Of a stretch of DNA of 62,661 bases, positions 26,047 to 26,527 are shown piece by piece. The position numbers were made by a program, and so were the translations under genes. The stretch is from Planctomycetota bacterium (GTDB lineage Bacteria > Planctomycetota > MHYJ01 > JACQXL01), in the NCBI GenBank assembly GCA_038059695.1, contig JBBTIZ010000004.1, positions 1 through 62,661 on the forward strand, written 5' to 3'. The notes beneath the pieces were generated by a model. That model was not told the DNA's origin. It did not search any database and was given only the letters and a program-made list of their open reading frames with translations. The first letter of the stretch is position 1. Every line of letters begins with the position of its first letter.

Positions 26047-26134
26047 CGGGGCGTAGCGCAGTGGCGCTAAAGACGCCATGGCGCGAATAGCGCCATCTGG
26101 TTAAAGCGTGGCGCCGGGGCGCCAAGGCCGGTGG
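26047..26134 (+). pseudogene. 5' tRNA-Pro relic interrupted by TGGCGC hairpins
   Basis: First 16 nt identical to the tRNA at 26378; D-loop and variable-loop remnants in order; three TGGCG..CGCCA hairpins. Confidence 0.8.
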
Positions 26135-26137
26135 CTA

Positions 26138-26374
26138 ATGCAATACTATACCTATATATTATATAGTAAGAAACTGAATAAATATTATACGGGCAGCACC
26201 CAAAACCTTAGTAACCGTTTAGGGGAACATAATTCTGGCGAAGATAAATTTACTAAGGCCGGAGTGCCCTGGGAGATGGTTAAATCTTTTGCAGTTAATA
26301 CAAGGGCTGAGGCAGTTAAATTGGAAAACAAAATAAAGAAAAGAGGTGTTAAGCGATTTCTTAATACCAGATAA
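26138..26374 (+). CDS. Small GIY-YIG nuclease
   Basis: YTYILYS....YYTGST.NL..RL.EHNSG...FTK...PW...A..LE..IKK. Confidence 0.9.
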   Translation: MQYYTYILYSKKLNKYYTGSTQNLSNRLGEHNSGEDKFTKAGVPWEMVKSFAVNTRAEAVKLENKIKKRGVKRFLNTR

Positions 26375-26377
26375 AAT

Positions 26378-26453
26378 CGGGGCGTAGCGCAGTCTGGCTT
26401 AGCGCGCTTGGTTCGGGACCAAGAGGTCGGTGGTTCAAATCCACTCGCCCCGA
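26378..26453 (+). tRNA. tRNA-Pro (CGG)
   Basis: CGGGGCG/CGCCCCG acceptor, CTTGG-TTCGGGA-CCAAG anticodon arm, GGTTCAAATCC T arm; CCA not encoded. Confidence 0.95.
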
Positions 26454-26466
26454 TATATTATTATAA

Positions 26467-26527
26467 CTGGCTTAGCGCGTGGCGCCAAAGCGCCAAGGTC
26501 GTGGCGCTCCAAGCGCCATCGCCCCGA
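26467..26527 (+). pseudogene. 3' tRNA-Pro relic with anticodon and T arms replaced by TGGCGC hairpins
   Basis: CTGGCTTAGCGCG, AGGTC and CGCCCCGA are identical to the tRNA and in order; the two arms are TGGCGC-loop-GCGCCA. Confidence 0.85.

Follow-up and report, generated by a model that had tools for sequence, protein, structure and literature searches.

The described systems closest to the locus analysed here are the Ssn enzymes, single-domain GIY-YIG nucleases that cut single-stranded DNA (ssDNA) next to hairpin repeats flanking their own genes (Chenal et al. 2025, PMC11893778). Cutting by these enzymes is confined to ssDNA and takes place a few nucleotides 5' of the hairpin, the repeats (NTS/SRM) can number tens to hundreds of dispersed copies, homologs pair with different repeat variants, and there are 0 occurrences of tRNA in the paper that describes them (PMC11893778). 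A GIY-YIG homing enzyme, SegB, is known from a tRNA cluster of phage T4, and its recognition site includes a conserved T-stem-loop motif (PMC2330249; the system also appears in PMC13096335). Integrase-borne islands and prophages in tRNA genes leave partial duplicates that are a common source of tRNA gene fragments (PMC9897764), and group I introns with homing endonuclease genes occur in bacterial tRNA anticodon loops (review PMC3984707). In a full-text literature search we found no account of tRNA copies with hairpin substitutions beside small GIY-YIG genes.

The window, a stretch of 62,661 nucleotides (contig JBBTIZ010000004.1), belongs to a Planctomycetota MAG (GCA_038059695.1, hereafter G000) that is 55% complete and consists of 92 contigs with a total of 1.27 Mb. 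Direct reading of positions 26047-26527 gives the order 5' tRNA-Pro relic, 78-aa GIY-YIG gene, intact tRNA-Pro(CGG) and 3' relic, which is the layout described in the initial annotation, and every part of it was found by reading and by tool checks (Table 1). As had also been claimed there, TGGCGC-loop-GCGCCA hairpins replace the anticodon and T arms and fill the D loop, and the connectors of the downstream relic are exact: 27/27 bases match the intact tRNA and are colinear with it. The two hairpins reported for the D loop are present, although they form one copy of a double-hairpin module of about 35 nt; as ssDNA the pair folds with z=-3.3, and its left-hand unit (gcgctaaagacgcca, then TGGCGC...) recurs on contigs C3 and C61. 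Together with the T before it, part 1 of the upstream relic matches 17 nt of the intact tRNA without a mismatch (within-locus E=1e-5); part 2 is nearer to its counterpart in Pro(GGG) genes from related genera, TCTGGTTTAGCGCG; and the relic stops at standard position 53, where the T loop would begin. Three hairpins therefore lie upstream of the GIY-YIG gene and two downstream of it. Each relic is devoid of one acceptor strand, and neither matches the Rfam tRNA model (RF00005) at E<=10; only 26378-26453 scores, and ARAGORN predicts one tRNA, at the same place. Given the repeats in the locus, the inserts and their sites can be read in several equivalent ways.

Table 1. Features of the tRNA-Pro locus and related features of the genome (window positions, unless a contig is named).
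Feature	Position	Strand	Sequence, content or support
Candidate promoter	26002..26030	+	TTGACG, 17 nt, TATCCT, with TATTAT overlapping; about 17 nt 5' of the relic (consensus scan)
Upstream relic, part 1	26047..26061	+	CGGGGCGTAGCGCAG = tRNA positions 1-15: acceptor 5' strand, linker, D-stem 5' strand
Two D-loop hairpins, upstream relic	26062..26095 (26062-26078, 26079-26095)	.	TGGCGCTAAAGACGCCA + TGGCGCGAATAGCGCCA; pattern search
Upstream relic, part 2	26096..26108	+	TCTGGTTAAAGCG vs TCTGGCTTAGCGCG in the tRNA: remaining D loop and D-stem 3' strand, 3 changes
Anticodon-arm hairpin, upstream relic	26109..26124	.	TGGCGCCGGGGCGCCA, exactly at the site of the 17-nt anticodon arm (standard positions 27-43)
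Upstream relic, part 3	26125..26134	+	AGGCCGGTGG: variable region and T-stem 5' strand
GIY-YIG gene	26138..26374	+	ORF, 78 aa; Pfam PF01541, E=1.3e-16
Intact tRNA-Pro(CGG)	26378..26453	+	ARAGORN; Rfam tRNA, 63.2 bits
Downstream relic, part 1	26467..26479	+	CTGGCTTAGCGCG: D loop from position 18 and D-stem 3' strand; 13-nt exact match to the tRNA
Anticodon-arm hairpin, downstream relic	26480..26495	.	TGGCGCCAAAGCGCCA
Downstream relic, variable region	26496..26501	+	AGGTC and first T-stem base (AGGTCG), identical to the tRNA
T-arm hairpin, downstream relic	26502..26518	.	TGGCGCTCCAAGCGCCA
Downstream relic, 3' end	26519..26527	+	T (last T-stem base) and CGCCCCGA (26520-26527), acceptor 3' strand and discriminator, identical to the tRNA
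Dispersed double module	28674..28708	.	TGGCGCCATAAGGGCGCCA + TGGCGCTTCGGCGCCA; overlaps the 5' end of the listed 718-aa ORF (minus strand, 26575-28731)
Degenerate double module	36570..36604	.	Intergenic
Y1 gene	C11:13009-13704		No TGGCGC hairpin in the ~700-1000 nt scanned on either side
Y1 gene	C90:32226-32966		Nearest TGGCGC hairpin ~900 nt away

The PF01541 match covers residues 2-69 of the encoded protein, a single domain over nearly its entire length with the conserved Tyr, Tyr, Arg and Glu of the GIY-YIG superfamily; within the clade alignment Y3, Y6, Y16, Y17, G19, R27, H31, N32 and E63 are invariant. Among solved structures, the UPF0213 GIY-YIG proteins 1zg2 and 1ywl come closest, and in an NCBIfam search of the protein no family scored above the cut-off. 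The gene has a GC content of 35%, against 51-54% in the flanking genes. Since synonymous sites are saturated between this gene and its ortholog in G005, a genome of another genus, only dN (0.18) is usable. By its composition, its invariant catalytic residues and this dN with saturated dS, the gene looks both foreign and functional. Its closest relatives, with 57-63% identity, are found in Bacteroidota, likewise at tRNA-Pro genes.

The protein resembles the Ssn enzymes in being a single GIY-YIG domain of less than 100 aa (about 80-100 aa in Ssn, 78 aa here), and the residues mutated in SsnA (Y6, Y17, E64) compare with Y6, Y17 and E63 here, by residue number alone. The gene is flanked by hairpins on both sides, the hairpin is dispersed (63 copies here), and in both systems the hairpin variant differs from one nuclease homolog to another. 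The published SRM motif, HGTCWYN(0-2)YYVSBRHN(0-5)WNVSBRGN(0-2)RNCYNB, has no match near the gene in the window or in the 60 loci scanned from relatives; the sole match in the window, at 54044-54071, is away from the gene. The locus differs from Ssn in two ways: its hairpins occupy fixed structural sites within partial tRNA copies, and its gene is tied to a tRNA isotype. SegB, of about 220 aa, has a DNA-binding part, whereas the window protein is a catalytic domain alone, with no room for a second one, and the SegB-type layout of catalytic plus DNA-binding parts is absent. Both systems place a GIY-YIG gene among tRNA genes, and the T-stem-loop motif of the SegB site has its counterpart here in a gene that joins its relic at the T loop; SegB is nevertheless a phage gene and the window gene a chromosomal, bacterial one, and the abstract on SegB describes no hairpin repeats, disabled tRNA copies or arm replacement (PMC2330249). 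An integrase-borne island would likewise keep the intact tRNA and leave a partial duplicate at the far end; here, in contrast, there is no integrase, the insert is below 0.5 kb between conserved housekeeping genes, and both 5' and 3' partial copies are present, their arms replaced by hairpins. The interval bounded by the conserved flanking genes contains no tyrosine or serine integrase and nothing beyond the relics, the tRNA and the 78-aa gene. A group I intron is also a mobile element at a structural loop of a tRNA and can carry a homing endonuclease gene, but here there is no room for a ribozyme, the intact tRNA stands apart as a copy without interruption, and Rfam gave no match at E<=10 to a group I intron or any other known RNA besides the tRNA.

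The architecture recurs at other tRNA genes. We compared 140 loci, 60 from relatives and 80 from other phyla. Small GIY-YIG genes are present in 23/41 relatives, with up to 10 or more per genome, and at 41 of the 60 relatives' loci the gene lies within about 260 nt of a tRNA on the same strand (26 upstream of the tRNA, 15 downstream); the chance expectation for such proximity, estimated from about 45 tRNA genes per 2.5 Mb, is about 1%, in agreement with the tie between small GIY-YIG genes and tRNAs that the initial annotation gave as known. The passage from relic to hairpin falls at standard position 26-28 in 11/16 cases among relatives and 33/44 in other phyla, that from hairpin back to relic at 42-46 in 24/40, and that from relic to gene at 53-55 in 8/13 comparable loci. 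The junctions thus cluster at 26|27 and 43|44, for at least 9 isotypes and several hairpin families, and are not the randomly placed hairpins in other relics against which the initial annotation had set its proposal. Downstream relics elsewhere also begin in the D loop, at positions 10-17. T-arm hairpins are seen in loci L008 and L013 too, the latter with tandem full-length scaffolds that have both acceptor strands and a hairpin at each of the D loop, the anticodon arm and the T arm. A search for other tRNA scaffolds with TGGCGC arms, which had been proposed as a check, yielded a second one in the same genome, beside tRNA-Gly(TCC) on contig C34.

Hairpin, isotype and nuclease co-vary. Mapped on the nuclease tree, hairpin class needs 7 changes against a shuffled mean of 12.2 (0/1000 shuffles) and, in a second test, 21 against 32.4 (0/1000 shuffles); tRNA isotype needs 17 against 31.2. 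The genome of the congeneric G002 holds several nuclease clades, each with its own hairpin class. In three Bacteroidota loci (L074, L078 and L100) relic positions 27 and 45 directly flank a TGGCGC hairpin, and a fourth, L092, has one directly 5' of relic position 47, in genomes of 3.8-6.2 Mb with merely 1-13 TGGCGC hairpins. As this hairpin is found in Bacteroidota tRNA-Pro cassettes and is rare elsewhere in those genomes, it belongs to the cassette. The hairpin at the anticodon position is an inherited cassette part, travelling with its nuclease clade.

Across congeneric genomes the identity of the locus was set by the same flanking genes, coding for an Hsp20 and the 718-aa protein. G002 has no cassette there and a native-type tRNA; in G000 the cassette is intact; in G001 the gene is reduced to its last 24 codons, with other hairpins and the segment inverted. 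There is no downstream relic in G001, and its upstream relic is remodelled, with the anticodon position deleted and different D-loop hairpins. G005 carries the cassette elsewhere, together with a separate native tRNA-Pro(CGG), and its downstream relic has TGGCGCTACGGCGCCA where G000 has the anticodon-arm hairpin and a real T arm (AGAGGTTCAAATCCACT) where G000 has a hairpin. Hairpin turnover at structural positions does occur, and some of it is recent, as the D loop of G000 and G001 and the T arm of G000 and G005 demonstrate. The cassette-free tRNA-Pro(CGG) of G002 is preceded by TTCTTGACTGGTTAATTAAAAGATATTATGC, near-identical to the candidate promoter of Table 1, which is probably, to judge from this comparison, the original tRNA promoter, now ahead of relic, nuclease gene and tRNA. 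In an alignment of 16 tRNA-Pro genes the 5' 30 nt of the cassette tRNA agree at 28-29/30 positions with GGG genes against 24/30 with native CGG genes, whereas its anticodon arm agrees at 17/17 with native CGG genes against 13/17 with GGG genes; the tRNA-Pro(CGG) at 26378-26453 is hence chimeric, with a switch at the boundary of D arm and anticodon arm. Empty (G002), occupied (G000) and decayed (G001) alleles at one locus, with the 5' part of the tRNA converted, correspond to the presence or absence between relatives and the co-conversion of flanking tRNA sequence in the SegB account.

We consider it fairly probable that the locus is a selfish cassette, an Ssn-like nuclease with its hairpin, that colonises tRNA genes while an intact tRNA is kept; in the best reading, small selfish cassettes of this class are widespread in tRNA genes, and the window holds one of them. 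The cassette would consist of a minimal, GIY-YIG-only nuclease gene of 78 aa, the short GC-rich hairpin of its lineage and tRNA-derived connectors. The tRNA's own promoter would now read a disabled 5' copy (positions 1-53, with a hairpin for the anticodon arm), with the nuclease gene beginning at the site of the T loop; the intact tRNA-Pro(CGG) comes next, so that tRNA function would be kept, and a second disabled copy (positions 18-76, with hairpins for the anticodon and T arms) comes last. By analogy with Ssn nucleases, the enzyme may bind its own hairpin in ssDNA and nick nearby; that this clade cuts at or near the hairpin, and that it cuts any tRNA gene, we take as assumptions, and what it recognises, how the breaks are repaired and which way the events ran are our inference; the architecture, its recurrence, the junction positions, the co-variation of nuclease, hairpin and isotype, the three allele states and the chimeric tRNA are observed. 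The break would be repaired by recombination with the tRNA-derived connectors as homology arms, which may carry copies of the cassette to tRNA genes with an identical or similar isotype and may also drive gene conversion between the relics and the adjoining tRNA. Conversion tracts would end at the non-homologous hairpin, and this would explain the sharp 26|27 and 43|44 junctions, the perfect connectors and the chimeric tRNAs. In the planctomycete family the hairpin has additionally multiplied genome-wide as a double module.

It counts against this cassette reading that an enzyme cutting solely beside its own hairpin would hit element-bearing and not naive DNA, the opposite of classical homing. 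A one-step model, with hairpin and gene as one contiguous insert, was rejected: in cassettes at different isotypes the variable-region/T-stem piece 3' of the hairpin, between the two, is of the local tRNA type, so hairpin and gene are two separate non-tRNA inserts, which need gene conversion or a two-step history. The cut-and-replace process first proposed for the locus stands in so far as some hairpins do turn over at structural positions, but a repeated step of this kind is unneeded for most of the pattern, the hairpin being inherited with the clade; sharp boundaries and exact connectors would be expected from gene conversion between adjacent tRNA copies that halts at the hairpin. A bolder version, which we regard as rather doubtful, is that the 78-aa nuclease and the 16-nt hairpin constitute a minimal autonomous mobile element that recognises tRNA genes, in single-stranded form, by their cloverleaf geometry: breaks and strand exchanges at the arm bases (26|27, 43|44, 53|54) would swap arms and hairpins as modules and, apart from spreading the cassette, shuffle anticodon arms between tRNA bodies (as in the functional chimera of the window, where the CGG anticodon arm is set in a body of the Pro(GGG) tRNA), driving the evolution of tRNA isoacceptors.

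The behaviour of the hairpin in the genome bears on an alternative that we hold to be unlikely, namely that ordinary REP-type repeats, spread by a Y1 transposase or another process, pile up in dead tRNA copies, the GIY-YIG gene being an unrelated passenger or a separate homing gene. A pattern search for TGGCGC-N3-8-GCGCCA gave 8 matches in the window against 0.1 expected and 63-69 in the 1.27-Mb assembly, where the reversed control pattern gave 0; about 28 of 63 genomic hairpins belong to the oriented double module of G000, which has at least five GC-rich palindrome families, a point in favour of the REP alternative. Of the further copies listed in the initial annotation, 28674-28708 and 36570-36604 are true double modules, but 10261-10290 is not a tight hairpin, consisting of two GGCGCC words 15 nt apart; a pattern match at 36825-36841, within a Pro/Ala-rich coding repeat, is probably due to chance. 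Insertion into the tips of longer palindromes, considered as a preference of the hairpin, was not significant (5/35 single TGGCGC hairpins against a control mean of 2.4, maximum 7). Family-wide dispersal also speaks for REP-type repeats: copy numbers are 63 in G000, 65 in G001, 54 in G006 and 37 in G008, and in G006 and G008 we found no close homolog of the window's nuclease. Hairpin abundance within the family does not track the TGGCGC-clade gene, which counts against the cassette reading; G005 has the gene, in interrupted form, but only 6 copies. Like the palindromes of REP/Y1 systems (IS200/IS605 relatives), the hairpins are short, GC-rich, often paired and mostly intergenic, and Y1-transposase genes are found in 8/9 family genomes, two of them in G000. 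Neither of these two has a TGGCGC hairpin within about 800 nt, as opposed to a REP/RAYT system, in which the Y1 gene is flanked by the REP copies that it mobilises. Moreover, the same hairpin occupies the same tRNA position in Bacteroidota cassettes with 1-13 copies per genome, co-occurring with the GIY-YIG clade across phyla even where it is unrepeated; hairpin class tracks the nuclease clade and not the genome, and the junctions are far from random. The term REP hairpin used at the outset suits the planctomycete family, where the hairpin is a dispersed repeat, but not Bacteroidota, where it is a cassette hairpin and no genomic repeat.

It seems quite improbable that the hairpin-substituted scaffolds are working tRNA-like RNAs or DNA structures that cooperate with the nuclease, for instance by picking the tRNA gene to be attacked or protected, or that provide RNase P/Z signals to free the nuclease mRNA. 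Exact connectors are retained while arms are replaced, the tandem full-length scaffolds of L013 have all three hairpins and both acceptor strands, the anticodon-position hairpin is common to G000 and G005 despite their different genera, and the relic, lying between promoter and gene, is probably part of the mRNA leader. Against a working scaffold stand the acceptor strand missing from each window relic, the lack of a tRNA match at E<=10 for either, and G001, where there is no downstream relic and the upstream one lacks its anticodon position and has different D-loop hairpins; the tRNA-mimic RNAs suggested initially are disfavoured by the same observations, and gene conversion from the adjacent tRNA explains the exact connectors equally well. 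Chance decay of tandemly duplicated tRNA genes, or misassembly, for which a 55%-complete MAG in 92 contigs might give grounds, is effectively refuted by 27 exact and colinear connector bases in the downstream relic, by 8 hairpin matches against 0.1 expected and by the same part order and hairpin position in G005, G001 and dozens of other genomes, whose independent assemblies exclude an assembly artefact.

If the selfish-cassette reading is true, these loci are among the smallest conceivable selfish elements, with less than 0.5 kb, one catalytic domain and one hairpin. It would connect two hitherto separate fields, homing at tRNA genes and the newly discovered, hairpin-specific ssDNA nucleases of the Ssn type, and would account for many 'tRNA fragments' and GC-rich palindromes by tRNA genes that annotation pipelines ignore or miscall. 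The nuclease-hairpin pairs, with their many natural specificities, are candidate ssDNA tools of the kind proposed for Ssn. For the bacteria that carry them, the cassettes would mean that the most conserved bacterial genes have been colonised in several phyla without being destroyed, and they are a suggested source of chimeric tRNAs.

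On reading positions 25500-27100, the parts described in the initial annotation, with tRNA-Pro relics carrying hairpins in place of tRNA arms on either side of a small GIY-YIG gene, were matched nearly base for base. The ATG of the ORF lies 3 bases past the end of the upstream relic, the tRNA-Pro(CGG) begins 3 bases past the stop codon, and a 13-nt AT spacer separates this tRNA from the downstream relic, whose connectors (the tRNA-derived pieces between hairpins) are identical to the intact tRNA at 27 of 27 bases. Folded as ssDNA, the relics are predicted to form exactly the hairpins described.

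Coordinates of the tRNA-Pro cassette parts in the window
Feature	Position	Details
Promoter-like site	26002-26030	
Upstream relic, start	26047-26061	CGGGGCGTAGCGCAG, tRNA bases 1-15
Upstream relic, two hairpins	26062-26078 and 26079-26095	
Upstream relic, remaining D arm	26096-26108	TCTGGTTAAAGCG, 3 changes
Upstream relic, hairpin at the place of the 17-nt anticodon arm	26109-26124	TGGCGCCGGGGCGCCA
Upstream relic, variable region and T-stem 5' strand	26125-26134	AGGCCGGTGG
GIY-YIG ORF	26138-26374	78 codons; Pfam E=1.3e-16
Intact tRNA-Pro(CGG)	26378-26453	
Downstream relic	26467-26527	CTGGCTTAGCGCG, hairpin, AGGTCG, hairpin, T, CGCCCCGA

The nuclease gene has a GC content of 35%, versus 51-54% in neighbour genes, and the catalytic residues of its product do not vary across the clade alignment. 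Compared with the ortholog from another genus of the family (G005), it shows a dN of 0.18 with saturated synonymous sites. We read these data together as a gene of foreign origin that experienced purifying selection in the past. The closest solved structures are those of small UPF0213 GIY-YIG proteins, with SLX1 matching weakly.

Small GIY-YIG genes were found in 23 of 41 relatives, with as many as 10 or more in a single genome. Among the 60 loci collected from these relatives, an intact same-strand tRNA follows the gene within 200 nt in 26, a tRNA precedes it within ~260 nt in 15 and no tRNA adjoins it in 19; by our estimate, chance alone would place about 1% next to a tRNA. Isotypes represented include Pro, Gly, Val, Ala, Leu, Asp, Ser, Phe, Arg, Lys, Asn and Glu, and self-comparison of the loci recovers the part order of the window; a tRNA-Ala locus (L049), for example, reads tRNA 1-27, hairpin, 44-54, gene, intact tRNA, 17-27, the same hairpin, 44-76. 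Scanning the clade alignment against one genome per species gave 504 confirmed relatives, the majority from Bacteroidota and others from Ignavibacteria, Cloacimonadota, Balneolaceae, Dojkabacteria, Lentisphaeria and one gammaproteobacterium, and the 80 loci of this cross-phylum set display the same design. Multiple cassettes can also be adjacent: in the congeneric genome G001 (L163, C1:19000-20700, reverse strand), two lie back to back between two tRNA genes, in the order tRNA-Gly(CCC), GIY-YIG, tRNA-Gly 3' relic, second GIY-YIG, TCCCGAT hairpin and tRNA-Pro(TGG). In the Bacteroidota loci L074 (1374-1900) and L100 (1370-1900), the terminator and gene start recur after the tRNA, gene and hairpin-substituted relic, so a "tRNA-like copy plus gene" unit forms tandem arrays; L100 also holds a decayed second gene copy.

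The positions of the junctions were counted in standard tRNA numbering. The relic-to-hairpin junction falls at 26-28 in 11 of 16 cases from the relatives and 33 of 44 from the cross-phylum set, and the hairpin-to-relic junction at 42-46 in 24 of 40 cross-phylum cases, 16 of them at 44. Random placement, which the initial annotation had named as evidence against its reading, is not what these clusters show. A smaller second cluster in the cross-phylum set marks the T arm; where the gene lies upstream of the tRNA, the tRNA-derived stretch following the hairpin stops at 53-55 in 8 of the 13 measurable cassettes, and at 53 in the window. The third site is the D-loop (14-17), where double hairpins are inserted and downstream relics start.

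The window contains 8 matches to the TGGCGC hairpin (TGGCGC-loop-GCGCCA) where 0.1 would be expected, and the 1.27-Mb assembly (55% complete) contains 63-69, varying with the permitted loop range. About 28 of the genomic copies form an oriented 35-nt double module, TGGCGCCATAAGGGCGCCA then TGGCGCTTCGGCGCCA, and the D-loop hairpin pair of the upstream relic is a variant of it. The pattern match at 36825-36841 sits within a Pro/Ala-rich coding repeat (GTGGCGCCGCAGGCGCCAAC repeated) and is probably due to chance and not an element. Within the family, copy numbers are 63 in the window's genome, 65 in G001 and 54 in another member (G006), and in other families of the order the hairpin is absent or, mostly, near the control-pattern level. 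A search for other tRNA scaffolds bearing this hairpin, as suggested earlier, found them in the same genome: the tRNA-Gly(TCC)-tRNA-Thr(GGT) spacer at C34:7320-7990 contains at least two tandem 3' tRNA-Gly relics, each with a TGGCGC hairpin (TGGCGCCAGAGGCGCCA) in the T loop and a repeat of the tRNA's downstream flank, together with other hairpin families and one 5' relic. No nuclease gene is present in this spacer, part of which reads N.

In the protein tree built from the 60 loci, the window gene groups with L002 (from G005) and L003 (from the congeneric G002) with a support of 100/99; all three are at tRNA-Pro and have TGGCGC hairpins. Further clades with good support carry TCCGCC/CCCGCC hairpins at tRNA-Ser, CCCGATGT.ACATCGGG hairpins at tRNA-Ala and tRNA-Arg, or TCCCGC hairpins downstream of tRNA-Phe and tRNA-Leu, and several clade/hairpin pairs coexist in G002. 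On the relatives' tree, hairpin class changes 7 times versus a shuffle mean of 12.2 and arrangement 13 times versus 26.8; on the cross-phylum tree, hairpin class changes 21 times versus 32.4 and tRNA isotype 17 times versus 31.2, the observed value being reached in 0 of 1000 shuffles in every case. In the sharpest comparison, across phyla, Bacteroidota genes sharing 57-63% identity with the window's protein sit at tRNA-Pro genes, whereas the paralog L003 is more distant (48-49%); TGGCGC hairpins occupy precisely the interval from relic position 27 to 45 at L074, L078 and L100, and lie immediately before position 47 at L092. Since these Bacteroidota genomes hold just 1-13 TGGCGC hairpins in 3.8-6.2 Mb, it is the cassette that brings the hairpin. 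Its attachment is to the nuclease lineage and not to the genome, and in the window's family it has then multiplied. The stems across clades (TGGCGC, TCCCGC, TCACGC, TCCTGC, TCCCGT, TCCCGA, TCCGCC) look like one ancestral hairpin varied through paired substitutions.

The cross-phylum result weakens the alternative that the hairpins are REP/RAYT repeats, as does the lack of hairpins around Y1 (IS200/REP-associated tyrosine transposase) genes, although hairpin-rich relatives without this nuclease gene speak in its favour. Two Y1-transposase-domain frames of ~231-246 aa, possibly IS200-like and REP-associated, are present in the window's genome at C11:13009-13704 (-) and C90:32226-32966 (+), with similar genes in 8 of 9 family genomes. 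The proposal that relics are working tRNA mimics received no positive support, and an assembly artefact is excluded by independent assemblies showing the architecture.

The same locus was recognised by its flanking genes in G001 (Lon 76%, Hsp20 79% and a 718-aa HEAT/prenyltransferase-like protein 84% identical) and in G002 (Hsp20 67%, 718-aa protein 72%; the Lon match is in G001). The cassette is intact in the window's genome. In G001 the gene is reduced to its last 24 codons (71% identical), the upstream relic has two different D-loop hairpins and a deleted anticodon position, there is no downstream relic, and, in comparison with window positions 25098-28731, the tRNA-Pro plus cassette segment (L061) is inverted relative to the flanking genes (718-aa gene, Hsp20, Lon). 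At the G002 locus, oriented as in the window, the conserved promoter is accompanied by a ~95-nt element, whose terminal inverted repeats are of another kind, and by a native-type tRNA-Pro(CGG); neither nuclease gene nor relic is present. In G005 the cassette lies in a different context, and a native-type tRNA-Pro(CGG) exists apart from it; the gene, 73% identical, is broken after about the 8th codon by a ~120-nt palindrome-rich insertion (L002, reverse strand, about 150-255), and the relic carries TGGCGCTACGGCGCCA as the anticodon-position hairpin while retaining the T arm. Invasion, decay and loss constitute the life cycle expected of a selfish nuclease gene.

Other palindromic elements were also observed. 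The G005 insertion contains GTCATTCTGAGCGAAGCGAAGAATCTCA, and a similar GTCATTCTGAGGAA...GAAGAATCTCAGGAT frame encloses a TGGCGC hairpin at C63:117 of the window's genome. A second GIY-YIG gene of that genome (C90:28020-28300; L066:1404-1503), 34% identical and with no adjoining tRNA, has a 13-bp terminal inverted repeat on either side, CCCCGTTAGAGAT / ATCTCTAACGGGG; its relatives (L012, L014, L027, L038, L045, L058) form a separate clade, mostly without tRNA. The ends of the gene-less G002 element, CCCCGTTAGAAAT / ATTTCTAACGGGG, are near-identical to this repeat, and the element lies directly upstream of the cassette-free tRNA-Pro(CGG), its right end overlapping the tRNA's first bases.

Aligning 16 family tRNA-Pro genes, we compared the cassette-linked tRNA-Pro(CGG) from the window's genome, G001 and G005 with the other genes. 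Their 5' 30 nt match GGG genes at 28-29 positions (27 in one case) and native CGG genes at 24 (25 in one case), and their anticodon arm matches GGG genes at 13/17 and native CGG genes at 17/17. The cassette-linked tRNA is chimeric, and the 4 anticodon-arm differences include one compensated base pair, which favours recombination over point mutation. The switch lies at the D-arm/anticodon-arm boundary, where relics exchange the arm for a hairpin. The chimeric gene is presumably functional, given that it is the sole one for the CGG anticodon in G001 (96% complete).

Ssn enzymes are single-domain GIY-YIG proteins of ~94 aa that bind a hairpin repeat in ssDNA, with cleavage a few bases 5' of the repeat; this repeat flanks 71% of their genes, and the word tRNA is absent from that report (PMC11893778). 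T4 SegB, encoded within a tRNA cluster, is a GIY-YIG homing enzyme whose recognition site includes a T-stem-loop motif and which drives co-conversion of adjacent tRNA genes (PMC2330249). By analogy, we propose that the window's enzyme may be an Ssn-like hairpin binder whose nicks would be repaired through recombination between tRNA-derived sequences, with connectors serving as portable homology arms; D-arm and T-arm boxes common to many tRNAs would permit a hop from one isotype to another now and then. Connectors would stay identical to the adjacent tRNA through gene conversion with it, and the non-homologous hairpin would halt conversion tracts, which together would produce the sharp junctions, the chimeric tRNA and the piece between hairpin and gene, which is of the local type at each isotype. 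Location behind a tRNA promoter may supply expression of the gene; the G-rich T-stem strand lies a short way upstream of the ATG. The proposal has an important weakness: were the enzyme to cut solely beside its own hairpin, it would attack carriers, not naive targets; a way round would be that the enzyme also recognises tRNA arms in ssDNA, or that hairpin-bearing relics act as landing pads.

The cassette hairpins of the 60 relatives' loci do not fit the published Ssn-related repeat motif (SRM). Elsewhere in the window, TGTCATTCCCGCGAAAGCGGGGATCCAG at 54044-54071 (-) fits it and resembles the Neisseria NTS repeat; SRM matches number 26 in the genome assembly versus 4-11 in mononucleotide shuffles, and no matching Ssn-type gene was identified in this 55%-complete assembly.

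Ssn-type nuclease-hairpin pairs and free-standing GIY-YIG homing genes are known kinds, of which the cassette appears to be a variation; its place within Ssn proper is putative, and the SRM motif, the one Ssn sequence criterion compared, has no match among its hairpins. Full-text literature searches returned no account of small GIY-YIG genes accompanied by tRNA copies with hairpin substitutions. What the window adds are three allelic states within one genus, a chimeric tRNA, quantified junction positions and evidence for a hairpin moving with its nuclease clade across phyla.
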